A stretch of DNA of 64,000 bases from Candidatus Gastranaerophilales bacterium (GCA_900769355.1 CAAGGG010000068.1:7478-71477); one strand, 5' to 3'; positions 2,107 through 62,727 are shown, numbered from the stretch's first letter. The notes: generated from the sequence alone by a model not told the origin. A program made the numbers and translations.

Positions 2107-2115
2107 GGGGGGGGG
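2107..2115. repeat. G9 homopolymeric tract (C9 on the coding strand of the downstream minus gene), followed by CAATC
   Basis: Read directly from the sequence. It lies 45-55 nt upstream of the ATG at 2062, inside a putative TTGCCC-17-TATATT promoter spacer. Confidence 0.8.
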
Positions 2116-2308: not shown

Positions 2309-2385
<77 letters not shown>

Positions 2386-2614: not shown

Positions 2615-3125
2615 TTATGAGAAAAGACTCGCATTAATTTTTGCAATTTTTGAATTTGCTTTCTTAAACATATGTTGATAAATTGATTGCGTTACACTAG
2701 GGTTTGCATGTCCTAAATAACCACTTATTGAAACTATATCAACTCCGTAATAGTTCAAAATACTTGCCTGTGCGTGTCTAAATGCATGTGGGTTCATTTT
2801 TGGAATTAGTGGTAATTGCTTTTCTGCAGGCAATTTTTTATTCTGTTCTACAATGATTTTGTTATATTTATCTTGGAAATCAGCGCAATAACCGGTAATA
2901 GAATCAGGGTGCAATGCATATCCACATAACGGCAATAATTTGCGCTGGAACGAAAAAGTGTATTTGACTTAAATTGTTTCTATAAGCATAATCTGCAACT
3001 ATTATTGTAGTGTTATCTGCACCTGTTCCTTGGTGAGCTTGTAATGTTACATATTTTCTTTCCAAAAAACTAATTGGTAATACCCCTACTTTATTTGAAC
3101 CAAGTATTCCCCATTGGATAATCAC
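2615..3125 (-). pseudogene. Tyrosine recombinase (phage integrase), truncated and frameshifted
   Basis: The C-terminal catalytic region HAFRHAQASILNYYGVDIVSISGYLGHANPSVTQSIYQH (R..H..R..Y box) is in ORF 2615-2935. The upstream part (2904-3125) is in another frame. Total length is about 0.5 kb against the roughly 1.1 kb expected. Confidence 0.7.
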
Positions 3126-3159
3126 ACCATTAGTAAAAAAAATACGAAAGGAGAAATAT

Positions 3160-3762: not shown

Positions 3763-4004
3763 TGAAAAAATTAGTTTTTATTTTAGGTCTTTTACTTATT
3801 TGCAGTAAAGCTTATTGTGCTGATATTCAGCCAAAACAGCTTATTGAAATCGAAAACTCCGGTGGGATTGCTATTGTTCAAAAACAACCGAATAATGAAT
3901 GCCAAATGCAAGTCATAAAGATTAAAAAGTCCGGAGGGTTTCTGTTGGTGCAAATTAACGGAAAGATTAAGGATTCTGATGCTTCGGTATCAAACACAAA
4001 ATAG
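3762..4004 (+). CDS. Small secreted or lipoprotein-like phage-region protein
   Basis: Has an N-terminal signal peptide (MKKLVFILGLLLICSKAYC) and is translationally coupled to the upstream gene (ATGA overlap). Confidence 0.4.
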   Translation: MKKLVFILGLLLICSKAYCADIQPKQLIEIENSGGIAIVQKQPNNECQMQVIKIKKSGGFLLVQINGKIKDSDASVSNTK

Positions 4005-4042
4005 TGAAGGTTATTTATTTTATTTGAATTGGAGATTGTAAA

Positions 4043-4558
4043 ATGGGTAGATTTTTGACTGCTCCGGCTAGGACAGAGCAATTACCGCAAAAAGGAATGT
4101 ATAAACTGGTAGATAATGAATTATACGAAGATGATGACAGGTCAATATATCTTCATTGGCGAGGTTTTGAGACAGATAATTTTACTTGGATTAATTCAAG
4201 CGATTGGGATATTAGATGTAGCCATGGACACGATATTGGTAGTAAATATCATCAAATACTGAAAGTTTGCATGTCCTATGATGAACTTATCAGTAAAGGA
4301 TATTTATACCAACATAAAGAAAAGTGGGTTTGTAAAGATATTCCTACAAAATATTTAATGGTTGTTGATGTTTCAGGACACGAAATCAACAACCTTTTTT
4401 ATAGAATGCTCAAATCTGCAGATTGTCCTGTAACTCCTAAATTTATTCAATGTTTATATAGAGCTGGGGTAGCATTCAATTTGAATTGGTTTCTAACTGG
4501 TAAAACAAAAATTGAACCTTGCATGATTTATTGTGATGTTTGGAATAAGGGGGAGTAA
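4043..4558 (+). CDS. Hypothetical protein (prophage moron position)
   Basis: 171-aa ORF between the tail and lysis genes with no recognisable motif. Confidence 0.4.
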   Translation: MGRFLTAPARTEQLPQKGMYKLVDNELYEDDDRSIYLHWRGFETDNFTWINSSDWDIRCSHGHDIGSKYHQILKVCMSYDELISKGYLYQHKEKWVCKDIPTKYLMVVDVSGHEINNLFYRMLKSADCPVTPKFIQCLYRAGVAFNLNWFLTGKTKIEPCMIYCDVWNKGE

Positions 4559-4827
4559 TGGACGAGTATTTTAAATATGGACCTCTTATAATAATGCTAC
4601 TTGGTTTTCTTTGGCAATACAGAATCTTTGTTACTCCAGAACAACTTGAAAAAAAACACCGTGAAATTTTGAGAGAGTGCCGAGATGAATTTGTATCTAT
4701 TGAAGTTTTTAAGGAATTTCAATCAGAAACAAAGGAAGATTTTAAAGAGGTAAAACAGGGTATTGCTGATTTATACAGTAATACAAATGATATTAAAGAA
4801 ATTTTGATGCGAGGGGCAAACAAATGA
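4558..4827 (+). CDS. Holin-like small membrane protein
   Basis: 89 aa with a single N-terminal TM segment (GPLIIMLLGFLWQY). It sits immediately upstream of, and overlaps, the lysozyme gene. Confidence 0.45.
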   Translation: MDEYFKYGPLIIMLLGFLWQYRIFVTPEQLEKKHREILRECRDEFVSIEVFKEFQSETKEDFKEVKQGIADLYSNTNDIKEILMRGANK

Positions 4828-5447
4828 AAACTAGTAACAATGGACTTGCTATAATTAAACATTTTGAAGGTTGTAGCTTAAAAGCATATAAACCAATCCC
4901 TGCTGAAAAAGAATACACTATTGGCTGGGGACATAAATCTTCTGACATAAAATCTGGCATGGTAATATCACAAGAATTAGCTGACAATTTGCTGATTCAA
5001 GACGTTTCTGTTGCCGAAAAATGTGTTCATAAGTTTGTTATAGTCCCACTTACGCAAAATCAATTTGATGCACTTGTTAGCTTTTGCTATAACATCGGCA
5101 GTTATGCATTTAGAGCCTCAACACTTGTCGCAATGCTGAATGCAAATAAATATATTGAAGCATCAAATCAGTTTAGCCGTTGGGTTAAAGGTGATAACGG
5201 CAAAATTTTACAAGGTTTAGTCAAAAGACGAAATATGGAAAAGGAATTATTCCTTAAAGATAGTTGTAAAAAAGCTAAAGTTACGGCTACTGTCTTAAAT
5301 ATTAGGACTGGTGCCGGAACAAATTATAAAGTTGTTGGATATTTACCGAAAAATGCAATAGTGAGCCTCACAGATGCTTCAAATGGTTTTGCGAAATTAT
5401 TAGATGGAAGAGGTTGGGTTTCTCAAAAATATTTAACTTACATGTAA
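4824..5447 (+). CDS. Phage endolysin: GH24 (T4-type) lysozyme with a C-terminal SH3b cell-wall-binding domain
   Basis: Catalytic N-terminus LAIIKHFEGCSLKAYKPIPAEKEYTIGWGH plus QFDALVSFCYNIG. The C-terminal segment ATVLNIRTGAGTNYKVVGYLPKNAIV..GWVSQKYL is SH3b-like. Confidence 0.85.
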   Translation: MKTSNNGLAIIKHFEGCSLKAYKPIPAEKEYTIGWGHKSSDIKSGMVISQELADNLLIQDVSVAEKCVHKFVIVPLTQNQFDALVSFCYNIGSYAFRASTLVAMLNANKYIEASNQFSRWVKGDNGKILQGLVKRRNMEKELFLKDSCKKAKVTATVLNIRTGAGTNYKVVGYLPKNAIVSLTDASNGFAKLLDGRGWVSQKYLTYM

Positions 5448-5510
5448 TAAAAATCTTATTATAAAACTATTGTTTTCATAATAAGCTCCTTTCTTATTTC
5501 TATGAAACAC

Positions 5511-5548
5511 AAGGTGGTTGGGTTGCAAAACTCAGCCACCTTTTTTTA
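5511..5548 (+). terminator. Rho-independent terminator after the lysozyme gene
   Basis: AGGTGG..CCACCT stem followed by a T7 run. Confidence 0.6.
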
Positions 5549-5565
5549 TTTATGTTATACTAGGA

Positions 5566-5797
5566 CTAACACAGAGTAAAAGATGCTCTCCGAAACGGAA
5601 CTTACTACATTAATAATGTAAGACTTCGGGTTAGTTCCCGACTAGGAAGGGGGTCGATATGGATAAATTCAATTTAAGTTTATTTTTAATCTTTTTGATT
5701 TTATTTATATTAAAAAACGGCTCTAAATCAAATGATTAAGAACCGTTAGACTTCGTCCAGAGCATCTGGTAGCTTCGGTAACTACCACTCTGTGTTT
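5566..5797 (+). ncRNA. Candidate structured sRNA of about 230 nt, family unrecognised
   Basis: TGnTATACT extended -10 at about 5551-5559. The 5' AACACAGAGT (5571) pairs perfectly with the 3' ACTCTGTGTT (5783) and GATGCTCT pairs with AGAGCATC. There are several internal hairpins with UUCG loops, a T-run after the closing helix and no ORF. Confidence 0.35.
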
Positions 5798-5844
5798 TTA
5801 TTATAAACGATATTTTCAAAATATTCAACCTTAATAGACAAAAA

Positions 5845-6027
5845 TTATAAAGATTTATTTCGATTTCTGAAATCGGTTAAACAATTTTCAAGAAATTCTT
5901 TCTCTTCGGGAGTAACTCTTTTATAAAAGACTACGGTTTCAGGTTTAAGTTTTACCCCTTTTTTACGTCCACCATTCCTCCACCCACCACGGGTGTTTTC
6001 AGAACCTATTATATATTCTTCTGCCAT
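5845..6027 (-). CDS. Small hypothetical protein (60 aa, basic)
   Basis: ATG at 6027 with SD AAAGGA. The product starts MAEEYIIGSENTRGGWRNGGRKKG... and no family was recognised. Confidence 0.35.
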   Translation of the reverse strand: MAEEYIIGSENTRGGWRNGGRKKGVKLKPETVVFYKRVTPEEKEFLENCLTDFRNRNKSL

Positions 6028-6640
6028 AAGTAATCCTTTCAAATTTCTTAATATTGGTAAAAATAGACTTGAAAAATATAAGAAATCGTTTAAAATGTAA
6101 ATAAAGGCAAGGGGTGTCGTTACCACCCCAAGCACCATTCTAAAGAATGGATTTGATGAGATGAACTATTGCTAGTATTAGTAATAGTTCTTTTTCGTTG
6201 ATTTCAATTAGCATTTTGTCCTCCTTTCTTCGCTAACTGAATTTTTGCCTTTATTTAATTTTCAATGTTCCTTACTCTTTAATTATACACTATTTATTGT
6301 TTTAATGCAAGCATTAAAACAATAAATAGAAGGAATTTGTTACAATGCTTAATGTTTATTTGCAAGCATTTTAACATTAAGCGTTAAGTCCTAACTAACA
6401 AAATTTCATGAAAACTATCAGAAAAAAAATATTGTGTTATAATTTTTATGGATAATATAATTAACAATAAAGATGAAAAGGAATATAAAAAAATGGGTGA
6501 CTTTTGGGTGACAATTTTATAAAAAAATACTAAAAATGGCATAATTTTATAAAAAATCACAAAAGGTCAAAAAGTCCGAAATCCTTTTTTTACAAGGTTT
6601 GCAAGAAATTATGAGAAATTACAAAAAGCGAAATTGTGAA

Positions 6641-6685
6641 CTCATAACCCGAAGGTCGTTGGTTCAAATCCAGCTCCCGCAACCA
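6641..6685 (+). repeat. Partial tRNA-fMet 3' half (att site duplicate)
   Basis: Exact 45-bp copy of 2341-2385. Confidence 0.9.
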
Positions 6686-6756
6686 TTTTAAAGGGATTGA
6701 TTTAAGGACTTGTCTATGAATTTATCCCTTTTATTGTTGATTGACTTTGGATATAT

Positions 6757-9175: not shown

Positions 9176-9284
9176 AACATAACCTCATCTTTCAATTATC
9201 ATTCTAACATATTTTTTAAGAATTTCAACCCTTGTGGTGGATAGAATTATAAAAGGTTGAAATTTGTTTGAAAATAGGGTAAGA

Positions 9285-9738
9285 TGAATATACATGAATA
9301 ATTCAACCGAAACAAACTATGCATCTATGCCTCTTGGCATCTTTGCATCTAAATCATTTTTTCGCAAGACTAATCTTGGCGGGGTAGGTACCCCGCCCTA
9401 CGTTGCTTCCTATAAAATAAGTATAGACAAATGAATAAAAACGGGTATAATAACACATGTGCACAGTAAAAAAGAAGGTGAGCTTTGTTACGAGAAATTT
9501 ATTTAGAAATGCTTTAGGGGGGGGCAAGCGTCTAGGATTTCGTTTAGTAGAGGGGGTTAATGATTTAGTAGCTAGCCGTCTAGCCGCCTTCACTCTCGCT
9601 GAAGTCTTAATTACCCTCGGCATTTCGATTATTGAAATAATATTATCAAAACGCCAAAGAGTTAATTTTACTCCTTGGCATTTTGATTTAAGTTATTTGC
9701 CGCAGGACGTACATTTTGGTTGTACGGGGGCAATGTAA
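9285..9738 (+). pseudogene. Scrambled remnant of a long-leader type IV pilin-like gene
   Basis: A leader fragment MNNSTETNYASMPLGIFASK.. ends in a stop at 9427. The G8-CAAGCGTCTAG motif is at 9516. A..AAFTLAEVLITLG (9585) then degenerates. Confidence 0.6.
9516..9523. repeat. G8 tract followed by CAAGCGTCTAGG
   Basis: Same motif as 14879-14899. Confidence 0.8.
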
Positions 9739-10055
9739 ATATGTTCAATTTGATTTCTGTTGCAATCACAATCGGCAAACGCTTTTTTGCATGTTGGACA
9801 AGGCATTATTTTAGGTTTGGCACATTCATCACATTTGACTTTTTTAACCTTACATTTGTTACAGTTTTTGAAACCTGTAAATGGGTTAAGACTGAAATTT
9901 GTTTTGTTTTCACCTATTCCAACATAAGGTAATGGATTTAAGTAAGAAATGTATGGCATTGGATTAAGTGTTTGCATGCCTTCCCAAGCAAAAGCATCTT
10001 GTGCAGAAAACGCAATTGCGCCAACCAGCGCGAGTGAAATAAATAATCTTTTCAT
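9693..10055 (-). CDS. Small secreted Cys-rich protein
   Basis: Signal peptide MKRLFISLALVGAIAFSAQDAFA, followed by a CxxC-rich tail (CNKCKVKKVKCDEC...CPTCKKAFADCDC). Confidence 0.5.
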   Translation of the reverse strand: MKRLFISLALVGAIAFSAQDAFAWEGMQTLNPMPYISYLNPLPYVGIGENKTNFSLNPFTGFKNCNKCKVKKVKCDECAKPKIMPCPTCKKAFADCDCNRNQIEHIYIAPVQPKCTSCGK

Positions 10056-14803: not shown

Positions 14804-14899
14804 ATGAAATTTGAGAAGTCGTTGGAGTTGTTAAAAAATGAAAGCAACCTGATTGACGAGTGGAGCGGCACGCTCCTCGGGGGGGGGGCAAGCGTCTAG
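14804..14899 (+). other. 31-codon uORF (MKFEKSLELLKNESNLIDEWSGTLLGGGASV*) reading through a G10 tract and stopping at TAG immediately after it
   Basis: SD AAGGAG lies 7 nt upstream of ATG 14804. The G10 tract at 14879-14888 encodes GGG. The +1 frame (ORF track 14860 onward) is open for 136 codons into the pilin ATG at 15268. Confidence 0.45.
14879..14888. repeat. G10 homopolymeric tract followed by CAAGCGTCTAGA
   Basis: Counted directly from the sequence. Confidence 0.85.
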
Positions 14900-15267
14900 A
14901 ATCCTCGCCCCAACGGGGAGAGGAAGCAATCGTTAGCGAGCGGTTAGCGAGTGTTACGAGTGCAGGTGAGGGGAATTTAGATGTCAAGATATCCAGAGGC
15001 ATAGATGTAAAGTCTGTTACTGGAAAAATAAATTGTCACGCACCTCTCTCCGAGGGAGAGGTGGTTTCATCTATCCAATCGACCCCCTCACCCGAATTTC
15101 TAAATTCACTACCGTTCATTAAGAAATTCTACCCTACTCCCCTTTGGGGTGAGGGTAAGTTTACAAAAGTTTCTCACGACAATAGCTGCAATTCACGTCA
15201 TTCTGAGCGTCAGCGAAAGAATCCAGCTTATTTATTGTATAATACAAGTAAATTGAAAGGAATACAC

Positions 15268-16206
15268 ATGAATAATTTAACCGAAACAGCCCAGCCATCT
15301 ATGCCTCTTGGCATCTTTGCATCTAAATATGATGTCGGCATAGCAATGCCGACCTACTTTGCTGTTTACCCATCTAAATCTTCCCTGACAAGGGAAGACT
15401 TAAGTTTCGGTAAAATTGTGCATTATAATAATTTCAACTTAACAGAAACGGTCCATTCACCATTCACTACTCACAATTCACTTAAAAAATCTGCCTTCAC
15501 ATTGGCGGAGGTTCTCATCACTCTCGGCATAATTGGCGTTGTTGCGGCACTTACTTTGCCATCTGTAATAAACAAATATCGTAGTTTTGTGCTGGAACAA
15601 CAGTTTAAAAAATCCTATTCAAATCTTTCGCAGACTATTATAAATATGAAGCGTGATTCTGGTCTGGAACATTTGAGAGATAATTATGTTCATTATGACA
15701 CAAATTCCGGTTATGATTCTACATTGGTAAAAGCTTTTTATGATAGTTTTGACAGTCACATAGCACCTGTTGATAAGTTGAAAAAGATATATTCAGTTAC
15801 AAATTATAGTGGAACAGGAACATCAGCCACTGATTATGGGTACGATTGGCCACGAGCTCTTTTTGTTTTAGCCGATGGAAGTAGTATTGGACGTCTTGTT
15901 AATAACGGTTGTTTGCTTTTTTGGATTGATACAAATGGGCCTTACAAAAAACCTAATCGTTATGGCTTTGATATTTTTGAACTTAGAGTTTGTGACAGTA
16001 CAGATGCTTTAAAGCCTGTTAAGGCATATAAAAACAATTATACCGATGAGGAGTTGGAAAAAGAACAGTTTCCGTATATTGTAGGTGCTCCTTGCACAAA
16101 AAATTCCAAACAACTGCTAAACGGCATAGGTTGTTCTTGGTATGCGTTGAACAATATTAATCCAGATGATGAGTCGAAAAAATACTGGGATAGTTTACCT
16201 TGGTAA
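15268..16206 (+). CDS. Type IV pilin-like protein (prepilin-type N-terminal cleavage/methylation domain) with an unusually long, roughly 75-aa leader
   Basis: Starts MNNLTETAQPSMPLGIFASK, continues to KKSA|FTLAEVLITLGIIGVVAALTLPS (Glu+5), and has the C-terminal motif IDTNGPYKKPNRYGFDIF. SD AAAGGAA; TGTATAAT extended -10 at about 15229. Confidence 0.75.
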   Translation: MNNLTETAQPSMPLGIFASKYDVGIAMPTYFAVYPSKSSLTREDLSFGKIVHYNNFNLTETVHSPFTTHNSLKKSAFTLAEVLITLGIIGVVAALTLPSVINKYRSFVLEQQFKKSYSNLSQTIINMKRDSGLEHLRDNYVHYDTNSGYDSTLVKAFYDSFDSHIAPVDKLKKIYSVTNYSGTGTSATDYGYDWPRALFVLADGSSIGRLVNNGCLLFWIDTNGPYKKPNRYGFDIFELRVCDSTDALKPVKAYKNNYTDEELEKEQFPYIVGAPCTKNSKQLLNGIGCSWYALNNINPDDESKKYWDSLPW

Positions 16207-16281
16207 ACTCTTAAATAGCCCTTGACTCTCCGGTTTGTTGCGTGTATTTTGGTTATACGAGAGATTTTGGGGAGATAATAT

Positions 16282-17661
16282 ATGGAAGAAAACAATGTTT
16301 TAAAGAAGTTTACAACAGCTCAGTTTTTGAACTTTGCGCTAGGTTTTTTTGGATTACAGTTTGCTTGGCAGATGAGAATTATTTTGTCAGGACCGGTTAC
16401 GGAAGGGCTTGGAGCTTCTCCGTTTATTTACGGGCTAATTTGGCTTGCGGGGCCATTTACAGGAATGGTTGTTCAGCCGCTTGTTGGTGCATTGAGTGAC
16501 AAAACTGTTTCTCCGCTTGGCAGACGTCGTCCTTATTTGTTAGGTGGTGCTTTGTTGGCGTCTTTGGCGTTGTTAATTTTTCCTAATTCCGGTGGAATTG
16601 CTGATGGTTTGGCAAGTTTGACAGGTTTGCATTTGCCGACTGTTACAGGTTTATTGATTGCTGCAATTATGATTTGGGTAATTGATGCGTGTGTAAACGT
16701 TGCACAAGGTCCTTATAGAGCGTTAATTCCTGATGTAGTGCCGGAAGAACAATATTCAATCGCAAATTCTTATATAAGTCTTGCAATCGGCTTAGGTTCT
16801 GTTGTTGCGGCTGGTACAGCTCCGTTTTTGAAATGGGCTTTTGGGTATCAAATGTCAATCCCTGCACAGTTTGTAATGGCTGCTTTGGCGTTTACACTTG
16901 GTATGATTTGGACTTGCATTACTATAAAAGAGTGCAAAAGAGAGCACGAAAATAAACAAGAAGCTGCTCAGAATAATGTTTCTTTCTGGCAGTCTTTGAA
17001 AGAGTTTTTTGCGTTGTCGCCTGAGGTTTCAAAAATATGTACAATGCAGTTCTTCACTTGGATTGGGACAATGTGTATGATGATTTTCTTTACACAGTAT
17101 GCGGTTCATACAATCTATTGTGTGCCTGATTTGACAACTGTTTCTGAGTCTACAAAAGAACTTTATGCACAAGCAACTTTGACTGGAACTAATTTTTCAT
17201 CAATTTGTTTTGCAATATTTAATTTGATTTGTTTTATCGTTGCAATTCCAATCGGATTTTTGTCGGCGAAGTTTTCAAATAAAAAAGTTCATATTATTTC
17301 AATAATAACAATGATTTTGGCTTATTTGGGAATGTTTTTCGCAAAAGATCCAAAAGCCGTTGCAGCTTTGATGGGCTTGTCAGGTATTGGCTGGGCAAGT
17401 ATTTGTGCATTGCCGTTTGCGATGCTTTCTCAATTTATTAAAAAAGGTACGGAAGGTTCTGTAATGGGAATTTTCAATATCTTTATCGCAGGTCCGCAAG
17501 TGTTTGTTTGCACACTTGTTGCATGGATTATTTCAAAATGCTCATTCACAATGGGATCTGACTACATTAACTACCACTGGGAATATGCATTTGTAATCGG
17601 TGCGGTTTGCCTTGCAATTGCGGCTGTAATCGCTTCTATGGTTAAGGAAAAGGTTCAATAA
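16282..17661 (+). CDS. MFS/GPH-family transporter (sucrose/glycoside symporter-like, 12 TM)
   Basis: LGRRRPYLLGG motif after TM2, 12 predicted hydrophobic segments, 459 aa. Confidence 0.7.
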   Translation: MEENNVLKKFTTAQFLNFALGFFGLQFAWQMRIILSGPVTEGLGASPFIYGLIWLAGPFTGMVVQPLVGALSDKTVSPLGRRRPYLLGGALLASLALLIFPNSGGIADGLASLTGLHLPTVTGLLIAAIMIWVIDACVNVAQGPYRALIPDVVPEEQYSIANSYISLAIGLGSVVAAGTAPFLKWAFGYQMSIPAQFVMAALAFTLGMIWTCITIKECKREHENKQEAAQNNVSFWQSLKEFFALSPEVSKICTMQFFTWIGTMCMMIFFTQYAVHTIYCVPDLTTVSESTKELYAQATLTGTNFSSICFAIFNLICFIVAIPIGFLSAKFSNKKVHIISIITMILAYLGMFFAKDPKAVAALMGLSGIGWASICALPFAMLSQFIKKGTEGSVMGIFNIFIAGPQVFVCTLVAWIISKCSFTMGSDYINYHWEYAFVIGAVCLAIAAVIASMVKEKVQ

Positions 17662-19061
17662 TGACTGAAAAAAAACGAATTCTTTTAATATATCCGCCAT
17701 CGCCTGTTATGAATAGAGAGGACAGGTGTCAGCAACCGACAAAGGATTTGATTGTAATTCCGCCTTTGCCACCGACTGACTTGATGTATCTGGCATCTGT
17801 TGCTGAGCAGGTTGGGTTTGAGGTAAAAATCGAAGATTACAGTCAGGGTGGCGATTTGGAATATGATTTACGAGAATTCAGACCTGATTATTTGGTTGTA
17901 AATATTGCAACTCCGACGCTTGAAAACGATTTAGATGCCGTAAAACGAGCAAAAGAGCTTAATCCGCACATCGTGACAATCGCAAAAGGTGCGGCGTTCT
18001 TGACTCTTGGAGAAAAAATCCTGAAAGAACATGATTTTCTCGATTTTGGAATTCTTGGCGAAGCAGAAGATACTTTGAAGGAAATCCTTGAAGGACGTGA
18101 AAAATCAGAAATTCTCGGAATTTATTATTGTGAAAACGGAGAGGTGAAATTTACTGGAAAACGTCCGTTTATTGAAGATTTGGACAGACTTCCATTCCCT
18201 GCTCGTCATCTTGTGGATAACAATATTTATAGACGCCCTGACAACAACAAAGTTCAGGCGACAATTAAGGTTGAGCGCGGTTGCCCGTTCCATTGCTTCT
18301 TCTGCCTTGCAACACCTGTTTCAGGAGCGAAAGTCAGACGCAGAAGTGCAGAAAATATTGTTGCAGAAATTAAAGAATGTGTAGAAAAATATAACATTCG
18401 GAATTTCTTGTTCTGGTCAGATATCTTCAATCTTGATAAAGAGTGGACGATGAACTTGTGCCAAGCAATAATTGAAAGTGGGCTAAAAATTACTTGGTCT
18501 GCAAACACCAGAGCCGACACAGCTGACTTGGAGATGGCAAAATTGATGTACAAATCTGGTTGCCGTCTTGTAAGTATCGGTGTTGAGAGCGGTTCACAAG
18601 AAATGCTTGAAAAAATGGGTAAAAACATTACGCTTGACGATGTTAGGAATACGGTTAAAATCTTTAAGCAAGCAAAGATCAGAATTTACAATTACTTTGT
18701 AATCGGGTTGCCTTGGGAAACAGAAGAGACGGTTGAGGAAACAATTAAATTCGCAATTGAGTTAGATAGCGATTTTATAAGTTTTTATACTGCGACTCCG
18801 CTTCCAGGGTCAAGATTTTATGATTATGCCAAAGAGCATAATTTATTTGATAACGAAACATCTTTTGAAAGTGCATATTTTTATCCGTCAGTAAATACGC
18901 ATTACTTGTCAAAAGACAGAGTTTTTGAATTGCACAAGTCTGCAATAAAGAGGTTTTATTTAAGGCCAAGATATGTTTTGAGAATGCTTAGCCGAATAAG
19001 ATCTTTTGAAGAGGTTAAAAACTACTTCATTGCGGGAATGAATGTATTGTTAAGAAGATAG
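17661..19061 (+). CDS. B12-binding-domain radical SAM enzyme
   Basis: N-terminal B12-binding Rossmann-like region (ILLIYPPSP...). Radical SAM cluster motif GCPFHCFFC. 466 aa. The start overlaps the stop of the MFS gene. Confidence 0.8.
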   Translation: MTEKKRILLIYPPSPVMNREDRCQQPTKDLIVIPPLPPTDLMYLASVAEQVGFEVKIEDYSQGGDLEYDLREFRPDYLVVNIATPTLENDLDAVKRAKELNPHIVTIAKGAAFLTLGEKILKEHDFLDFGILGEAEDTLKEILEGREKSEILGIYYCENGEVKFTGKRPFIEDLDRLPFPARHLVDNNIYRRPDNNKVQATIKVERGCPFHCFFCLATPVSGAKVRRRSAENIVAEIKECVEKYNIRNFLFWSDIFNLDKEWTMNLCQAIIESGLKITWSANTRADTADLEMAKLMYKSGCRLVSIGVESGSQEMLEKMGKNITLDDVRNTVKIFKQAKIRIYNYFVIGLPWETEETVEETIKFAIELDSDFISFYTATPLPGSRFYDYAKEHNLFDNETSFESAYFYPSVNTHYLSKDRVFELHKSAIKRFYLRPRYVLRMLSRIRSFEEVKNYFIAGMNVLLRR

Positions 19062-20545: not shown

Positions 20546-20669
20546 GTCGTTATTCTGAAAGCTTAGAAAAATATTCTAAGCGATTAGCGAAGAATAATTT
20601 TTCTTGCTATTCAGAATCTCTTGCGAAATAGAATAGACTCCGGATCGGAGTCCGGAGTGACAGTTACGG
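20546..20669. repeat. Palindromic repeat unit of the ATTCTGAA...TTCAGAAT + ACTCCGGATCGGAGTCCGGAGTGAC family
   Basis: A second copy lies at 21409-21512, with the shared tail tagactccggatcg(g/t)agtccggagtgac(a/t)gttacg. Confidence 0.7.
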
Positions 20670-20703
20670 TTAGTTGTTTTGCGAAAATTGCAATTATTTT
20701 ATT

Positions 20704-20960
20704 CGTCATTCTTGTATGTGTTAAGTAATTCGTTGACAAAAATTTTAATCAACTACCCACTCTCATTCTCTCCCTAATTGAGGGAGAGAAGCTATACCTT
20801 GCAACTATCTCTGTTTATAATCCTGTATAGCAGCAATTTATGAATTTCAATTTATACAAAACATAAGTCTTCCCTCGGTTAGGGAAGATTTAGATGGGTA
20901 AACAATATTACGAGATAGTCTATTTTGTCAACGAATTACTTAACACATACAAGAATGACG
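20704..20960. mobile_element. 257-bp non-coding MITE-like element with 38-bp perfect terminal inverted repeats
   Basis: Left TIR 20704-20741 (cgtcattcttgtatgtgttaagtaattcgttgacaaaa) is the exact reverse complement of 20923-20960. It contains an internal hairpin repeat (cccactctc..ctctccctaattgagggagagaagct) that is also at 34325-34400. Confidence 0.7.
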
Positions 20961-21040
20961 ACTTCGTAATTATTTTGTAACGCCCCTAGTGCCTTAGTAA
21001 CCTAGTATCTTAATGATTCAGACTTTGCCTCTTCAAAACC

Positions 21041-24197: not shown

Positions 24198-24270
24198 TCG
24201 ACCCCTCTCCCGAATTCGTAATGTTCACTAGCGTTCGCAAACGACTTCGACCTCTTCCCTTGGAGAGGTG
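24198..24270. repeat. Roughly 72-bp GC-rich hairpin repeat (cccctctcccgaattcgtaatg..cttcccttggagaggtg), copy 1
   Basis: Near-identical copy at 24746-24816, a diverged copy at 24890-24958, and inverted partial copies at 24320-24350 and 24860-24888. Confidence 0.75.
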
Positions 24271-24361
24271 TGTTTAACAAGCTATTCTCGCCTAGGGAGA
24301 GAAAGTAGCCGTTTGAGCGGAGCGAATTACGGATACAAGAGAGGGGTTAATAGGTTTTGGG

Positions 24362-24703
24362 TTAAATCATCAACCTTCTTATATATTCTAAAACTCCTTC
24401 TAAATTATTAATATTATCGTTAGTAATTCTTACAACTTTATATCCTTTACTTGCAAGATATTCATCGCGTTCTTTGTCATAATTGCTGTTTTCAAAATGC
24501 TGAGAACCATCTAATTCAATAATCAACTTATTATCTGTACATAAAAAATCTACTATATAATTTTCAATAGGTACTTGTCTTTTGAATTTAAATCCCAAAA
24601 ATCGTTTTGCTCTTAAATTTTGCCATAGTAATAGTTCAAAGTCAGTCATGTTTTGTCTTAAATCTTTGGCATAATTTAGGATTTTTTTGTTTTGCTTTTT
24701 CAT
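24362..24703 (-). CDS. DUF559 / Vsr-like endonuclease-domain protein
   Basis: 113 aa. Motifs LWQ.LR...GFKFKRQ, IVDF.C....LIIELDG..H and YLASKGYKVVRI are typical of DUF559. Confidence 0.65.
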   Translation of the reverse strand: MKKQNKKILNYAKDLRQNMTDFELLLWQNLRAKRFLGFKFKRQVPIENYIVDFLCTDNKLIIELDGSQHFENSNYDKERDEYLASKGYKVVRITNDNINNLEGVLEYIRRLMI

Positions 24704-24745
24704 TGGCTGAATTATAGCATGAAATTGTTTTGTTGTTAATTAGCT

Positions 24746-24816
24746 AACCCCTCTCCCGAATTCGTAATGCTCACTAGCGTTCGCAAACGACTTCGACCTC
24801 TTCCCTTGGAGAGGTA
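24746..24816. repeat. Copy 2 of the roughly 72-bp hairpin repeat flanking DUF559
   Basis: See 24198-24270. Confidence 0.75.
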
Positions 24817-25042
24817 AATTTGTCTAAAATAGTAGCAATGCAAAGGTTCTCTCTCCTAGGGAGAGAGCTAGAGAGAGGGGGGAATTCATTCGACCCCTCT
24901 CCCGCAGTCATAATGATTACAGCAGTTCGCGAAGAACTTCGACCTTTCGAGAGGTGTGTTTTTATATAAAACAAATAGAGACTCAGTGAAAACCGAGTCT
25001 CTATTACATGTTTTTGAATTAGCTTGACTAATTCTATACTTT

Positions 25043-33810: not shown

Positions 33811-34324
33811 AGTTTATTATATATAAATTGTTTGGTGCAGTTTTGTACTCAATTGTAGATTGAGCATACTTGCACAACATTGTAAATGTGCAAGTAAATT
33901 AGGTTTTGAATAGCAAGAAAATTTATTCTTCGCTAAATGCAGATACTTTTTACCAATATATTGTTACTATTTTGCTTACAAGTTATTAGTAAATAGAGCG
34001 TGTGGCTGGTTTTGTGGAACTTTTTCCATAGAAAGTTCCTGCTGTCCGCGCAGGACATTATAATTAATAAAGAATAGAGTTTTTATGTAAACTTATGTAA
34101 CAAAAGTATAATGTTTATGCAATTTTTATATACAGAAATACTTTATATATATGTAAGACATAAATAACAAATTGCAAAAGCAATAATTAATAAATTTCTA
34201 CACTACCTACTACACACTTTCTACCTACCTTTTACACGAGAATCATTAAAGATTTCGGCCTTCTAAATTCATTTAGAAGGTTTTATTTTTGTGTAATGAA
34301 AATATATACAATTTTTTATGCTAT

Positions 34325-34400
34325 TTACCCACTCTCTTTCTCTCCCTAATTGAGGGAGAGAAGCTTTGCCTTGCAACTGGTCCCGTTTATAATTCTGTAA
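34325..34400. repeat. Copy of the hairpin repeat shared with the interior of the 20704-20960 element
   Basis: Sequence ttacccactctctttctctccctaattgagggagagaagctttgccttgcaactggtcccgtttataat, compared with 20754-20830. Confidence 0.7.
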
Positions 34401-48075: not shown

Positions 48076-50580
48076 ATGTTCGAACGTTTTACGGAAAAAG
48101 CTATAAAAGTTATTATGCTTGCTCAGGAAGAGGCTCGCAGACTTGGGCATAACTTTGTCGGAACTGAACAGGTCCTTCTTGGACTTATCGGTGAAGGCAC
48201 AGGTGTTGCTGCGAAAACTCTTAAATCTATGGGTGTTACCCTAAAAGATGCCAGAGCAGAAGTTGAAAAAATTATTGGTAGAGGTTCTGGCTTTGTTGCA
48301 GTGGAAATTCCTTTCACCCCTAGAGCTAAAAGAGTCTTGGAACTTTCTTGGGACGAAGCAAGACAACTCGGCCACAACTACATAGGTACAGAACACCTTC
48401 TTCTTGGACTAATCCGAGAAGGCGAAGGAGTTGCTGCAAGAGTTTTGGAAAATCTTGGTGTTGACTTAAATAAAGTTAGAAGTAATGTTGTGAAAATGCT
48501 TGGTGAATCTAAGCCACAAACTGTTTCTTCAGGCGCATCAGGCTCATCATCGTCGTCATCAGGCGGAAAGACAAAAACTCCAAGTTTAGATGAATTTGGT
48601 CGTGACTTAACACTTGCTGCTCAAGAATTAAGACTCGATCCGGTTGTCGGCAGAGAAAAAGAAATTGAACGTGTTATTCAAATTCTTGCTCGTCGTACTA
48701 AAAACAACCCTGTTCTAATCGGAGAACCGGGTGTTGGTAAAACAGCCGTTGCAGAAGGTTTGGCAATTAGGATTGTTAACGCAGAAGTTCCTGATATTTT
48801 AGACGGCAAAAAAGTTATCCAGCTTGATATGGGGCTTTTGGTTGCCGGCACTAAATATCGTGGTGAATTTGAAGAACGTCTTAAAAAAATCATGGACGAA
48901 ATTCGTCAAGCAGGAAACATTATTCTTGTAATTGATGAAATGCATACGCTTATCGGCGCAGGTGCCGCAGAAGGCGCAATTGATGCCGCAAACATCTTAA
49001 AACCGGCATTGTCACGTGGCGAAATTCAGGTTATCGGTGCTACAACTCTTGATGAATACAGAAAATATGTTGAAAAAGACCCTGCTTTGGAACGACGTTT
49101 TCAATCTGTAATCATTGATGAACCGACTGAGGAAGAGTCAATTGAAATTATCAAAGGCTTGAAACCAAAATACGAAGAGCACCATAAATTGATTATTTCT
49201 GATGAAGCAATTGTTGCTGCGGTAAAATTGTCTAACAAATACATCACAGACAGATTTTTGCCGGATAAAGCAATTGACGTAATTGATGAAGCATCTTCAA
49301 AAGTTCGTTTGAAGGTTTCAAACTTGTCACCGGAAGGCAAAGAACTTGAAAAAGAGTTGCGTTCAATTATTAAAGAAAAAGAAAATGCTATCAGAAATCA
49401 GGAATTTGAAAAAGCTTCTCAATTAAGAGATGACGAAGCTGATATGAAAGATAGAATTCGTGAGATGGCTCAAAAATATAGAGAAGAGCACGAAGCAAAC
49501 AAACCGACTGTTACGGCTGAAAATGTTGCGGAAGTAATCGGAACAATGACCGGTATTCCTGTAACTAAGTTGACAGAAGGCGAAAGCGAAAGACTTCTTA
49601 AACTTGAACAAACTCTTCACGAAAGGGTTATCGGTCAAAACGACGCGGTTGTTGCTATTTCTAAGGCAATCAGACGTGCAAGAGTCGGCTTGAAGAGCCC
49701 TAACAGACCTATTGGAAGTTTCATCTTCTGTGGTCCAACCGGTGTTGGTAAGACAGAACTTGCAAAAGCTTTGGCAGAAGCTGTGTTTGGCTCAGAAGAT
49801 AACATGATAAGAGTTGATATGTCAGAATTTATGGAAAAACATTCAACTGCGAAACTTATCGGTTCTCCTCCGGGATACGTTGGTTACGATGACGGCGGAC
49901 ATTTGACAGAACTTGTTCGCAAAAAACCTTACAGCGTAATTCTATTTGACGAAATCGAAAAAGCACACCCAGATGTATTCAACATCATGTTGCAAATTTT
50001 GGACGATGGTCGTTTGACAGATGCGAAAGGTCGTCACGTAAACTTCAAAAACACAATTATCATTATGACATCAAACGTTGGTGCAAGCATGATTACAACA
50101 ACATCTAAGCTTGGTTTCTCAACAAGTGATGATGAATCAAAAGACAAGTACGAAAAACTTAAAGAAACAGTTTCTGAAGAAATGAAGAAAGCATTCAGAC
50201 CTGAATTCTTGAACCGTATTGATGAAACAATCGTATTTGCTCATTTGAAACAAGAAGAAATCAGACAAATCGTTGACTTGATGTTGAAAGATTTGGTTAA
50301 ACGATTGGCTGAAAGAGAATTGTCACTTGAAGTTACAGATGAGGTTAAAGATCATTTGGCGAAAAATGGTTATTCGGAAGCTTATGGTGCAAGACCTTTG
50401 AGAAGGTTAATACAACGTAAGATTGAAGATATGCTTGCAGAAGAAATTTTATCTGGCAAATACTCAGCCGGTGATACAATTGTAATCAAGTTGGTTGATG
50501 ATAAAATCGCTTTTGATAAGAAATCAAAACGAGCTAAAAAAGAACAACCTGCTGAATCAGCAGAAGAAACAGTTCAATAG
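48076..50580 (+). CDS. clpC: ATP-dependent Clp protease ATP-binding subunit ClpC
   Basis: Two Clp_N repeats, a UVR motif, two AAA+ modules ([16 protein letters not shown]) and 834 aa. Confidence 0.95.
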
Positions 50581-50600
50581 AAATGTTTTAACTCACAAAA

Positions 50601-50630
50601 AGACCTCTATAAAAAGAGGTCTTTTTTTTA
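50601..50630 (+). terminator. Rho-independent terminator after clpC
   Basis: AGACCTCT-ataaaa-AGAGGTCT stem plus a T8 run. Confidence 0.8.
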
Positions 50631-50656
50631 TGTGTAAAAGTGGAATGACTTAGATA

Positions 50657-51471
50657 TTACCAAGGATACGTAATTTTCCAGCCATCTTGCATGATTTTTG
50701 CAGCGCAAGCTGTCCCAGAAGAATTACAATTTGAATTTATTTCTGCTGTGGTATTTGAGTATAAATCGGCTCTTACAATGCCGTCTTTAAAGTCAATCCA
50801 AAATCTAAAAAGGTCTTTTCCAAAAACATTTGGAGATTTTATACCATTGATATCAACTACAACTTCTTGTTTGGGGTTAAACATTGGCGTCCAGTGTTCT
50901 CCCCACTTTGTGAGTAAGATAAAATAAGTAACGCCGTCAGGAGTTGAAAAAAAAATTCTTCCGGCTGAATAGTTTGTGTAAATTGAAGTGTCATACGTTC
51001 TTCCGTTTTTATATTTGTATGCTATATTGCTTCCTTGCCAAGGACCACTTGGTGAAGTGTCGACATTTGCGCCATTAAAATATGGTAGCCAGTAAGTGTC
51101 AAAAAATTCTTTAACCGACTTTTGGGTGGCAACTGTTTCTTCAGTAAAATTGACTACGTCGTTGTCTGCAAGTGATTTTTGCGCGATTTGTCCGAGAGCA
51201 GAATACGCTTTTTTGAGCTTGGTTACAGTGACTTGTTTTTGGTAATTCTGGATAATAGTTGGAATAGTCAATGCTGCAACAGCGCCTATGATCCCGAGGG
51301 TGATTAGAACTTCAGCCAATGTAAAAGCGGCTCGATGCAGCTTGTCACAGAGGGCTACGTGCGTAGCACCGCTTCCTAGCTTCCTAGCTGCTTCTACAAC
51401 AGACTTTGCCTCATTTTGTTGTTTTAATGAGCTCTCGGGGGGGGGGCAATCATGGAACTATTATTAATCAT
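50657..51471 (-). CDS. Type IV pilin-like gene with a C10 tract in codons 9-12. It is out of frame as sequenced (putative phase-variable, OFF).
   Basis: Promoter TTGACA-17-AATAAT (plus 51508-51536), SD GAGGAG, then ATG at 51471. The product is MINNSSMIAPPPRAH* with 10 C. With 11 C it would be in frame with ...ESSLKQQNEAKSVVEAARKLGSGATHVALCDKLHRA|AFTLAEVLITLG.. and the rest of the pilin domain (VDINGIKSPNVFGKDLF, C-terminal DGWKITY). There is no canonical internal start. Confidence 0.6.
51437..51446. repeat. G10 (C10 on the coding strand) homopolymeric tract followed by CAATC
   Basis: Counted from the sequence. Same ctc-Gn-caatc context as 2107-2115. Confidence 0.85.
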
Positions 51472-51538
51472 TCTTTTTAACTCCTCTTATTCTTAACGTA
51501 TAAATTTATTATTTACGATATTTTGTGATTTGTCAACT

Positions 51539-59985: not shown

Positions 59986-60842
59986 TGAAAAAGATTATTT
60001 TAGGATTAGTATTATTGCTTGTTGCTCAGAATGTTCAGGCAAAAGATTGTGAAACATTAAAATGTCCTGCACCTTATGATTTAACGTCAGGTTTTTCTCG
60101 TGGGGTCAGTACTGTGACAGGTCAAAATTTTTTGGCAGAGCGAATTGGAGAAAGTTTAACTAAAAAAGCAATTAAGAAAAATATTACAAGCGGAGATGTG
60201 AAAGTTAAACTGGACTCTTTCAGTACAAGAGATTTGAAGGCCGGAAGGTTTAAGTCGCTTGAAATAATTGGTAAAAATGCTAATGTACAGGGCGTTTATA
60301 TCTCATCTTTTGATGCGAAAACGCTTTGCAATTTTAACTACGTAGCACCTGATAAAAAAGGAAATTACGTTGTAAAAGAAGATATTCCGCTTTCTTTTGA
60401 AGCTGAAATTACAGAAGATGACTTGAACAAAACTATGCAATCTTCTGATTACAAACGTATGATTGATGATTTGAACGGTGTTACGGGCGGATTGAATTTA
60501 TTTGAAATAACTTCTACTCGTGTAAAATTGAGAAATAACAAAATGTATTACGTTATGAATTATGCAATTCCTTTTGTGCGTAAGACAAAACAGCTTGTTA
60601 TCAGTGCTGATTTGAAGGTTGAAAACAACAAAATCTTACTCGCAAATACAACTTTTATGAATAACACAATGTCATTAGATGTTGATAAACTTTCAAGATT
60701 GTTTAATTATATTAACCCACTTGATTTTTCTGCTAAAATATTGGAGAATAAAGAGGCAAAATTTAGCGTAGAAACAGTCAAGATTTCTGACGGAAAAATA
60801 AAAATTGATGGAAAAGCGACAATTCTAAAGGATAAGGAATAG
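59985..60842 (+). CDS. Secreted hypothetical protein (285 aa)
   Basis: Signal peptide MKKIILGLVLLLVAQNVQA and no confident family. Confidence 0.45.
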   Translation: MKKIILGLVLLLVAQNVQAKDCETLKCPAPYDLTSGFSRGVSTVTGQNFLAERIGESLTKKAIKKNITSGDVKVKLDSFSTRDLKAGRFKSLEIIGKNANVQGVYISSFDAKTLCNFNYVAPDKKGNYVVKEDIPLSFEAEITEDDLNKTMQSSDYKRMIDDLNGVTGGLNLFEITSTRVKLRNNKMYYVMNYAIPFVRKTKQLVISADLKVENNKILLANTTFMNNTMSLDVDKLSRLFNYINPLDFSAKILENKEAKFSVETVKISDGKIKIDGKATILKDKE

Positions 60843-60845
60843 ATT

Positions 60846-61457
60846 ATGCGAAAGAATGAACGAGTTTTTTTAGGTGTTACAGCGGTTATAATGGTTGTTG
60901 TTTGCTGTGTTTTAGGTTTGAGAATGCTTTATCATAATGATGAAAATGTGTCAGGACCTTTGACGCCGGTTCCTGAAACTCAAATTCCACAAGAGCAAGA
61001 GGAGCAACCGGAAGTTCAAAAACCTGTGGAAAAAGTTTATGCCAATGTGTTTTTCATTGGACAAGACGGTTCTAAACAAGAAGTTTATAGAGCTGTAAAT
61101 CGTCAATATGACAAAGATGTAGATGGTTCAAAAATTAAGTTTGCAGTTCGTGCTTTGATTGCAGGTCCGACAGCTTATGAAAAATCAAAAGGAGTTTACT
61201 CTGAAATTCCTGCCGGAACTCGTGTTATTTCTATAACAGAAAGTTCTGACAAGGTTGTCATCAATTTGAACTCAGCGTTTGAAAACGGTGGTGGAACAGA
61301 TAGTTTGTACAAAAGGCTTTATCAGTTGATTAAAACTGCTAAACGAAACACAAATAAACCTGTTTACTTATACATTGAGGGACAAAAAGCAGATGTTATA
61401 GGTGGCGAAGGTATTATGATTACTCAGCCGTTGAATGAAAATTCGTTGGACGGTTAG
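60846..61457 (+). CDS. GerMN-domain protein
   Basis: N-terminal TM/signal. Segment VRALIAGPTAYEKSKGVYSEIPAGTRVISI...VVINLNSAF is GerM-like. Confidence 0.65.
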   Translation: MRKNERVFLGVTAVIMVVVCCVLGLRMLYHNDENVSGPLTPVPETQIPQEQEEQPEVQKPVEKVYANVFFIGQDGSKQEVYRAVNRQYDKDVDGSKIKFAVRALIAGPTAYEKSKGVYSEIPAGTRVISITESSDKVVINLNSAFENGGGTDSLYKRLYQLIKTAKRNTNKPVYLYIEGQKADVIGGEGIMITQPLNENSLDG

Positions 61458-61460
61458 CAG

Positions 61461-61730
61461 ATGGGTAACAAAGACTTAGATTACTACCTCGGACTTGATT
61501 GGAGCGTGATAGAGGGCGAAGATACCGATTTTGACGGTAATCCGTACCATTATATTGAGATAAAAGAAATTCCGAGTTTTTTGTTCTGTGCTAAAACTTC
61601 TGAAAGGGCAAGAGAACGATATAAACAGCAGCTTAAATGGACTTTGCAGGTAATGTTGGAAAGCGGAGAACATATTATTGAACCTGGAGAAGAAGACGAT
61701 GAACCTGATTGGGAAAATCTTTGTCCATAA
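61461..61730 (+). CDS. Acidic hypothetical protein (89 aa)
   Basis: ORF with no recognised motifs. Confidence 0.35.
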   Translation: MGNKDLDYYLGLDWSVIEGEDTDFDGNPYHYIEIKEIPSFLFCAKTSERARERYKQQLKWTLQVMLESGEHIIEPGEEDDEPDWENLCP

Positions 61731-61791
61731 GGAAGCTAAAATGTTGAGAAAGGACGAAGTTCTGAAAAAATAAGATATTAGAAGAACCTTC

Positions 61792-61801
61792 GGGGGGGGG
61801 G
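61792..61801. repeat. G10 homopolymeric tract followed by CAACTTCGAAG
   Basis: Counted from the sequence. It sits in the 5' region of pilin gene 61900, flanked by CTTCG/CGAAG. Confidence 0.85.
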
Positions 61802-61899
61802 CAACTTCGAAGACACGTTTAACGCGAATGAGAATTCTTCAGAGCCGAAAGAATCCAGCTTATTTATTGTATAATACAATTAAATTGAAAGGAATACAC

Positions 61900-62727
61900 A
61901 TGAATAATTTAACCGAAACAAACCACGCTTCTAAGTCTCTTGGCATCTTTGCATCTAAAACAGTTTCGTGTCGGCATAGCAATGCCGACCTACAAAAGAA
62001 AGTCGCGTTTACCTTAGCCGAAGTTCTCATTACCCTCGGCATCATCGGCGTTGTTGCGGCATTGACTCTTCCAACTGTCATTAAGTATTACAAGGCAAAG
62101 GTTTTGGAAACAGCATTCAAAAAAAGTGTCACAAACCTTTATCAAGCCTATGATCTCACAAGACAACAACTTGGTACTGATGAAATATACTCATATTATA
62201 CAATATATAGCAGCCAAACAAACTCATATCCAAATATACAAGAATTTCAAACAACCTTTGAAAATAATTTAAAAGTAATTAAAAATTCTACTAATTGGTG
62301 GGACTTTTATCCAATCTATAATTATAATAAGACCAAATTAACAACAGAAAACATTGGAACGGATTACCCTAATGCAACTAAAATTTTAGCAGATGGAAGT
62401 TCTTATAACATGCATGTAAATTTCGACGGAAATCAAATCGCAGTTCATATATATATTGATACAAATGGTCCATATAAAGGTCCAAATCAATATGGACATG
62501 ATATTTTTAAATTTCAAATCAGACATGATAATAAATTATCACCTGTAAAAATGAATAAATTATATACAGAAGAAGAACTTGAAAAAGCAAACTACAAAGA
62601 ATTAGTTGGCTATCCATGTTCTGTCAAAAGTAAACAAGCGACGAATGGTGCAGGGTGTTCTTATTACGCAATGAACAATATAAATCCTGATGATAATTCT
62701 AAAAAATATTGGGAAAGTTTGCCTTAA
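61900..62727 (+). CDS. Type IV pilin-like protein with a long MNNLTET leader (paralogue of 15268-16206)
   Basis: MNNLTETNHASKSLGIFASK...KKVA|FTLAEVLITLGIIGVVAALTLPTV. C-terminal motifs IDTNGPYKGPNQYGHDIF and NNINPDD.SKKYWESLP. The 5' cassette is near-identical to 15196-15345. Confidence 0.75.
   Translation: MNNLTETNHASKSLGIFASKTVSCRHSNADLQKKVAFTLAEVLITLGIIGVVAALTLPTVIKYYKAKVLETAFKKSVTNLYQAYDLTRQQLGTDEIYSYYTIYSSQTNSYPNIQEFQTTFENNLKVIKNSTNWWDFYPIYNYNKTKLTTENIGTDYPNATKILADGSSYNMHVNFDGNQIAVHIYIDTNGPYKGPNQYGHDIFKFQIRHDNKLSPVKMNKLYTEEELEKANYKELVGYPCSVKSKQATNGAGCSYYAMNNINPDDNSKKYWESLP

Follow-up and report, generated by a model that had tools for sequence, protein, structure and literature searches.

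In Neisseria, a poly-G tract in the signal-peptide-coding region of pilC1 and pilC2 switches a pilus-associated protein, encoded by several paralogues, ON and OFF, and the opa family carries CTCTT repeats in the region coding for the leader peptide; its members switch independently, and most copies are OFF in a given cell. Campylobacter jejuni and Helicobacter pylori possess a "phasome" of contingency genes with poly-G/C tracts, and in Bordetella pertussis fim2/fim3 and Neisseria meningitidis porA/opc poly-C/G runs are located in promoter spacers. The human-gut Melainabacteria, a commensal sister lineage of the Cyanobacteria, are uncultured, and their encounters with the host or with phages are little understood. 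Here we analyze a stretch of 64,000 nucleotides (nt) from a human-gut Candidatus Gastranaerophilales bacterium of this lineage (GCA_900769355.1 CAAGGG010000068.1:7478-71477; 35% G+C), referred to below as the window. Its minus strand contains a run of ten C's (C10; G10 on the plus strand) at the 5' end of a type IV pilin-like gene, where the leader is encoded, and we argue that this run is probably a slipped-strand contingency switch. A full-text search (phase variation, homopolymeric tract or pilin) found no description of such a switch in Melainabacteria or Gastranaerophilales.

According to the mechanism that we propose, slipped-strand mispairing during replication would add or remove C's, and would thereby move the start codon at position 51471, with its Shine-Dalgarno (SD) sequence, in or out of the pilin frame. 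A tract of 11 C's (or eight) would give a precursor of 271 amino acids (aa), in which a leader of 49 residues precedes the ...DKLHRAA/FTLAE N-terminus. With C10, C9 or C12, translation from this ATG would end within a few codons (15 at C10) and no pilin would be made, so that the allele in the window would be OFF. The same design, consisting of a promoter, an SD-ATG, 4-28 codons, a G/C tract, a translated linker and an FTLAE pilin, would be repeated in a large family; most of its units would be OFF at any time, and the cells of a population may therefore show different pilin-like subunits. Four of five features of simple-sequence-repeat contingency loci are found here, namely a 5' tract above the length of about 7-8 nt from which G/C runs can slip, frame switching, natural ON/OFF polymorphism, and over-representation near surface-type genes.

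The locus resembles Neisseria pilC in that a G/C run lies a few codons after the start, within the part coding for the leader, that changes in its length shift the frame, and that there are paralogous copies. However, PilC is a tip adhesin/assembly factor with a Sec signal peptide rather than a prepilin-type one, its host is a proteobacterial pathogen, and the long translated linker and the flank motif occurring in two orientations are features of the present system and not of pilC. The likeness to opa is that of a multigene family in which each copy has its own promoter and start, the repeat lies in the leader-coding part and most copies are OFF; the opa repeat, on the other hand, is a pentamer, and the opa products are outer-membrane proteins and not pilin-like. 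As in the phasome, many G/C runs of about 8-12 nt are present in an AT-rich, gut-associated genome, over-represented and placed in the 5' coding part of surface-structure genes, and their lengths are polymorphic between strains. In contrast, phasome tracts span functionally diverse genes and are not known to have a shared flanking motif, whereas the tracts described here are concentrated on one pilin-like family and share the flanks TC-Gn-CAAT. Thus, the mechanism is that of a classic contingency locus, with two unusual extras: the two-orientation flank motif and the long translated leaders before a prepilin-type N-terminus.

As the sequence-only reading had proposed, the minus strand carries a complete expression unit. 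It begins with a sigma-70-type promoter at 51508..51536 (TTGACA at 51536-51531, a 17-nt spacer and AATAAT at 51513-51508), which matches the consensus at 11 of 12 positions and is the top-scoring promoter-like site of the region; it is kept in the twelve alleles L001-L012 from other assemblies, in one of which (L011) the -10 box is TATAAT. The SD sequence GAGGAG (51481..51486), also flagged as AGGAG-type by our script, lies 9 nt upstream of the ATG at 51469..51471, with which the switchable open reading frame (ORF) starts (MINNSSMIA...). Downstream of these elements, at a distance of 25 nt from the ATG and 62 nt from the -10 box, is the C10 homopolymer (51437..51446); it occupies codons 9-12, and we consider it to be the variable tract at an OFF length. 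The linker between the tract and AFTLAE (51329..51436, 108 nt) encodes ESSLKQQNEAKSVVEAARKLGSGATHVALCDKLHRA and is followed by the pilin-like body A/FTLAEVLITLGIIGAVAALT... (50660..51328; 223 codons including the alanine at -1) and by the stop codon of the pilin ORF (50657..50659). A hairpin terminator at 50597..50626 is common to the convergent pilin and clpC genes.

Direct reading of the sequence bears out the predicted OFF product: the frame of the ATG consists of eight codons, exactly ten C's and CCG AGA GCT CAT TAA, giving MINNSSMIAPPPRAH and then the TAA at 51424..51426, which closes a product of 15 codons. The pilin frame itself is open from 51457 to the stop at 50659-50657, reading ...CPPPESSLKQQNEAKSVVEAARKLGSGATHVALCDKLHRAAFTLAEVLITLG..., and the linker contains no stop in this frame versus three and four in the other two. 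Simulation of tract lengths showed that n = 8 or 11 joins the ATG to the downstream frame of 263 codons, resulting in an open frame of 275-276 codons from the ATG region, whereas at n = 9, 10 or 12 a stop is reached 7-12 codons from the tract; the expectation that 11 C's give an uninterrupted frame into the pilin is thereby borne out. The leader peptides of the predicted ON form include SVVEAAR and LGSGATHVALCDK. From 51457 onward no ATG, GTG or TTG occurs in the pilin frame until the TTG inside FTLAE at 51319. The earlier statement that no alternative canonical start is available is therefore correct at C10; it fails at C9 or C12, where the simulation brings a TTG that abuts the tract (51449-51447), and that has no SD sequence, into the pilin frame. 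The promoter, the SD sequence, the ATG, the tract anatomy and the frame logic are thus confirmed at the locus.

Three other functions were considered for this region and rejected. Elements of the cyclic di-GMP type are common upstream of pilins, and a riboswitch or leader RNA of this kind was suspected in the GC-rich linker; no Rfam family matched over 51320-51460 at E <= 1, the only matches being weak ones to the terminator hairpin at about 50600. A role of the tract as a -35/-10 spacer was discarded because TTGCCC-17-TAAAAC is weak and because the tract lies inside an ORF, downstream of a strong promoter. Finally, a repeat search near the locus found neither an inverted partner of the tract motif nor flanking inverted repeats, and a local invertible element was rejected.

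Evidence for a switch comes from the same locus in other assemblies. The locus was defined by the synteny AspRS-RibF-pilin-ClpC and was recovered through exact-protein look-ups in many gut-metagenome assemblies. Its C run has, within near-identical flanks, a length of nine in L011, ten in the window and in L003-L007, eleven in L010 and twelve in L012. The C11 allele of L010 encodes the intact 271-aa protein P0128 (MINNSSMIAPPPESSLK...AFTLAE; MINNSSMIAPPPESSLKPQNEAKS...AFTLAE), that is, precisely the ON protein that had been predicted. The sample with the ON allele is ERZ28635351; the strain of the window is present in, for example, ERZ27229671, ERZ28572370, ERZ27229625 and GCA_902463505.1. In alignments of about 6.7 kilobases (kb) between the window and strains that are 1.2-2.5% divergent from it, the tract is the sole frameshifting indel in about 6 kb of coding DNA and differs in length in three of four lineages; the remaining indels are located in intergenic A/T runs or at alignment ends. 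A scan of Joint Genome Institute (JGI) metagenomes for the locus with a variable gap gave no matches.

These data also bear on the question of whether the tract was simply miscounted, its true length being 11 and the gene intact. G/C homopolymers of at least 10 nt are error-prone, and two contigs (L008, L009) terminate in or just before the tract, which would be in line with a miscount; as a sign of a mixture of lengths, these contig breaks are only suggestive. Against it, six independent assemblies from different samples and pipelines agree on ten, others have 9, 11 or 12, and the same lengths recur across many loci and species. A systematic undercount is unlikely, because the C11 and C12 alleles would not remain if it had occurred. 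We therefore regard a miscount as highly improbable.

In two further assemblies (L001 and L002) the orthologue is intact and has no tract: its sequence reads ATTGCCC-TA-GGTGC and encodes the 247-aa protein P0001 (MINKSTMIALGATHVA...). Because this tract-less orthologue uses the same promoter, SD sequence and ATG, the ATG at 51471 must be the real start of the gene. Compared with L001, about 73 nt (seven C's and the first 66 nt of the linker) replace "TA" in the window. One could thus read the frameshift as the scar of a leader insertion or rearrangement of about 73 nt, and the pilin gene as a pseudogene in the window strain: the C run is the first part of the extra sequence, which disrupts the frame of the gene, the 5' regions of the family are highly mosaic, and a truncated pilin remnant is present elsewhere in the window (FTLAE at 9589). 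We consider a dead gene very unlikely, since the pilin body shows no disruption and has 93-97% identity to alleles that look expressed, since the linker is open in the pilin frame only, and since the same long allele is an intact ORF at C11 in another strain. Moreover, an orthologous locus in another species has the tract directly in the leader, without the insert (C10 in L027, and a locked 11-nt form in L038). Because these carry the tract without the insert, the tract is ancestral to the locus and not a recent scar.

The design is not confined to this gene. We compared 15 pilin loci of GTDB species representatives of Gastranaerophilales/Melainabacteria (human-gut metagenome-assembled genomes), and found a G or C tract of 9-10 nt located 13-440 nt upstream of FTLAE in 12 of them. 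These 12 loci have a promoter-like TATAAT, an ATG 4-28 codons before the tract and, mostly, an AGGAG-type SD sequence. In the nine linkers of at least 100 nt, which together cover 2,663 nt between tract and FTLAE, there is no stop codon in the pilin frame versus 88 and 59 in the other two frames. Hence, selection acts on translation from the tract onward into the pilin, and the tract is a true part of the coding sequence. ON proteins with a varying number of tract codons (...PNGGGALSS, ...PNGGGGALSS, MKKKFRIAFGGGGNR... and MINNSFMIAPPPNGATHVA) are present in the protein collection. There are also locked alleles, in which the tract is interrupted: L038 has CCCCTCCCCCC, 11 nt long and in frame, and L035 and L028 have GGTGGGGG. 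At a sister locus located at about 61.8 kb in the window, a G7 (L029) and a G10 (L036) have common flanks and the same frame. The natural length variants, among them an ON allele, together with the recurring design and the stop-free linkers, support the interpretation of the sequence-only reading, which had seen homopolymer-mediated phase variation in this architecture.

Several observations weigh against a freely operating slipped-strand switch. Firstly, the C run is ten long in each of four near-clonal assemblies, which come from other samples and diverge from the window by 0-0.06%. Because of this, the polymorphism we describe is one between strains; all data are consensus assemblies, in which minority tract lengths are invisible, and frequent reversible switching within a clone is a step that we infer. 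Secondly, this allele is OFF on roughly 30 contigs versus ON on two. Such a skew is unexpected for free-running switching; it fits OFF-biased selection or mutation, or another read-out such as transcriptional slippage. Thirdly, none of the 13 assessable loci (11 species references and two window loci) is in frame at its assembled length. Those with n = 10 need +1 and those with n = 9 need +2 or -1, most being exactly one nt short. For independent loci, which these are not, the chance of finding all of them OFF would be (2/3)^13, or about 0.005. Fourthly, the conservation of the flanks TC-Gn-CAAT extends to 26 distinct contexts, whichever way the tract is oriented to the gene, and slippage alone offers no explanation for it; at four loci the tract is inverted relative to the gene, and the tract motif of the window is the exact reverse complement of that of L016 over 23 nt. 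Fifthly, the edge of the tract also acts as a structural breakpoint at the 61.8-kb and RibF loci, as described below. Two further points concern the product. The 51-kb gene scores just under the curated cut-offs of the pilin profiles (TIGR02532, 15.9 versus 16.3; PF07963, 18.4 versus 21.2), and its 49-aa leader, like the leaders of up to about 230 aa at sister loci, far exceeds any prepilin leader known to us.

The uniform OFF state is the main reason to consider programmed recoding, which is the principal rival of our interpretation. The tract would then be of near-fixed length, RNA polymerase slippage (+1 nt) or a -1 ribosomal slip would provide a low, set expression from the "OFF" DNA, and length changes at the DNA level would be secondary. 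That all 13 assessable loci are out of frame, most by one missing nt, is what recoding would predict, and the modal length of ten, which together with the flanks is kept across species and in both orientations, looks more like a set-point than a drifting repeat. In addition, a run of 9-10 nt is about as long as the RNA:DNA hybrid of an elongating RNA polymerase. Rescue by transcriptional slippage at long homopolymers has precedents in the poly-A tracts of endosymbionts and in the recoding of insertion sequence elements, and the present genes resemble these cases in being one nt out of frame at a homopolymer and in conserving this state across lineages. However, the documented bacterial examples mainly concern A/T runs and, unlike in slippage rescue, length variants are observed here at the DNA level: 9, 10, 11 and 12 occur at this locus, and one of them is an ON allele. 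Furthermore, in locked alleles the total length is fixed at 11, which is in frame, and at the sister locus G7 and G10 keep the same frame within the same flanks, as expected if the DNA length is what is read. On balance we think it unlikely that recoding is the primary function of the tract; it should be noted that recoding and DNA-level switching are not mutually exclusive.

With respect to the identity of the product, the gene has more than 7,000 homologues and contains the prepilin-type motif HRAA/FTLAEVLITLGIIGAVAALT, in which position -1 is alanine and not glycine, as it is in most of the paralogues in the window. The profile of TIGR02532 is passed by the paralogues at 19084 (19.9) and 25043 (22.3). 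Because the scores of the 51-kb gene fall just below the family cut-offs, we refer to its product as pilin-like and not as a proven pilin. DUF6613 (PF20318) is listed in precomputed tables for homologues; the window protein gave no match to it at E <= 0.01, and we have not relied on it. The window contains seven pilin-like genes or fragments, scattered among housekeeping genes, and none of the 20 window ORFs scanned encodes pilus machinery or a prepilin peptidase. A termite-gut Gastranaerophilales genome has been reported to have pilA, pilB, pilC, pilT and pilD (PMC5877343).

The leader of the ON form, at 49 residues, is longer than the short leaders (less than about 30 residues) expected of prepilins, and it ends in a basic stretch (DKLHRAA), as canonical leaders do. 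We infer that a prepilin peptidase would remove the long leader and that the product would be surface-exposed. Stop-free leaders of 100-230 codons between tract and FTLAE are seen at 14860-16206 and 61792-62727 in the window and in L013, L016, L017 and L007; these span an apparent internal promoter, an SD sequence and a second ATG (MNNLTET...).

The breakpoints at the tract edge are seen at the 61.8-kb locus, where we compared L028-L037 with window positions 61700-62000. The left flank is kept in ten strains, and the sequence immediately to the right varies: it is caacttcg, aacttcg or cttcg, which amounts to deletions of 1-3 nt, or consists of unrelated modules, and the downstream products are 275, 351, 377 or 390 aa long, a 93-aa remnant, or absent. 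The right flank of the tract also varies among alleles of the RibF locus. In L013 (CAKUZO010000048.1), a reference of the same species, the pilin body and ClpC are 97% identical to window positions 49918-51329, and synteny is lost exactly at AFTLAE; upstream of it there is a different genomic context with a tract in the G orientation, so that the whole 5' expression unit has been swapped. In L039 (ERZ27229671 k119_63271), the one contig recovered in a look-up with the 15-kb pilin, the left side of the 61.8-kb pilin locus is joined to the 15-kb pilin and its right side, the junction being a shared 5' repeat of about 114-144 nt (compared with window positions 60400-61993 and 15214-17706); the join is due either to a true rearrangement involving the two paralogues or to a chimeric assembly.

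The leaders, too, are mosaics, built of recurring blocks such as GATHVAxCDKxRRV, EAAKQLGS and MNNLTET..., and some homologues have AFTLAE-GATHVAxCDKxRRV-AFTLAE duplications that resemble an insertion with target duplication. The linker of the 51-kb gene contains an interrupted palindrome, GCTAC-GCAC-GTAGC (51354..51367, minus strand), which encodes part of the GATHVA block and is the sole copy in the window. This palindrome was found only in pilin leaders, also in other species (L017, L020, L021, L027, L038), and often abuts the tract. These observations point to recombination among the paralogues as a process that accompanies the tract switch.

It could be argued, going one step further, that the tract is primarily a recombination or breakpoint site through which 5' expression modules and pilin bodies are exchanged, and that its effect on the frame is incidental. 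The variable right flanks at the 61.8-kb and RibF loci, the loss of synteny at AFTLAE in L013 and the two-locus join of L039 agree with this, and flanks kept in both orientations could be a recognition site. This would, however, leave unaccounted for the consistently placed SD-ATG, the open linker frame, the in-frame ON alleles and the locked alleles, and the surroundings of the locus yielded neither a recombinase gene nor an inverted partner of the motif. We judge such a primary role to be quite unlikely, and note that module exchange can coexist with phase variation. A bolder idea, to which we assign a small chance, is that TC-G(9-10)-CAAT is the working site of a dedicated, lineage-specific system of pilin diversification, acting either through programmed slippage at a tract one nt short or as an anchor for module exchange among dozens of paralogues. 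Such a system would account for the occurrence in two orientations, for breakpoints anchored at the tract, for linkers that stay free of stops over as much as about 600 nt, and for the swaps of 5' units at AFTLAE.

A slipped-strand switch is also consistent with the distribution of similar tracts in the window itself. There are five sites with a G/C run of 8 nt or more (8-10 nt long), corresponding to 12 pattern matches versus 0.12 expected, and none of 100 shuffles reached 12. At four of these sites a pilin FTLAE motif follows within about 620 nt, and the fifth lies upstream of a gene for a large surface-type protein. All five have the flanks TTG-Cn-GA(G) in common and have their G's on the plus strand. 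Among the sister tracts, the G10 at 14879..14888 (plus strand) has an SD sequence and an ATG (14805) 25 codons upstream and, downstream, an open frame of 442 codons that leads into a pilin paralogue with FTLAE at 15496. At n = 10 this unit is OFF, and fusion would result from n = 8 or 11. A look-up with the neighbouring PGI protein, translated from the chosen start, matched no recorded product. The G10 at 61792..61801 (plus strand), that of the 61.8-kb locus, precedes the FTLAE of a pilin paralogue by 203 nt; the window no longer has the upstream start, which is retained in relatives such as L029, whose G7 allele gives a 390-aa ON product. An ATG located 20 codons before the G8 at 9517..9524 (plus strand) shares its frame with this tract and with what is left of a pilin gene, a truncated fragment with FTLAE at 9589. 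This remnant, at 9240-9740, has only 49 codons after FTLAE, and the G8 tract is accompanied by a degenerate copy of the 5' repeat of the paralogues.

The fifth site differs in its layout. The C9 at 2107..2115 (minus strand) has the same TTG...GAG flanks and is contained in a promoter-like TTGCCC-17-TATATT. The distance to the downstream gene, which is on the minus strand (ATG at 2062) and encodes a surface-type protein of more than 687 aa, is 45 nt. Judging from the match to the consensus, this C9 is a candidate promoter-spacer switch (2090-2118). The likeness to Bordetella fim and to porA/opc therefore concerns this tract only; the layout is absent at 51437, where the tract comes after the ATG and exerts its effect through the reading frame. 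Among the ten contigs listed for the 2107 locus, nine have phage-type genes instead of the left-hand context of the window; the tenth, L042, belongs to the same clone as the window and has the same length, n = 9.

Taken together, our data suggest that gut Melainabacteria possess a sizeable set of independently switchable pilin-like genes, which would provide a form of bet-hedging as in Neisseria, Campylobacter and Helicobacter, and which is visible from metagenomes alone. The pilin-like family is systematically mis-annotated, because gene callers truncate or mis-start its members, yielding 220-aa "MAEVLITLG" products and ORFs with long spurious N-termini. The lengths of the tracts in gut samples could be used to follow selection on surface structures, and the long translated leaders before a prepilin-type N-terminus raise the question of how the precursors are processed.

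Two other features of the window are worth mentioning. In the region 2309-6692, a phage-derived element has integrated beside a tRNA-Met gene (2309-2385); the 3' end of the tRNA-Met is repeated at 2341-2392 and 6641-6692, in the manner of attL/attR. The genes at 3160-5447 have matches on other contigs, in a gene set to which a lysozyme-SH3 gene also belongs. A number of these contigs have Gp53-like tail-fibre C-terminal cassettes in both orientations, which from their arrangement look like a tail-fibre shufflon, and two have a phage integrase. In addition, numerous small GC-rich direct and inverted repeats occupy intergenic regions of this AT-rich genome at 15040-15170, 20560-21040, 24200-24960 and 33900-34400, examples being hairpins of the CCTCTCTCCGAGGGAGAGG type, a perfect inverted repeat of 39 nt at 20703/20923 and 69-nt repeats at 24201/24747.

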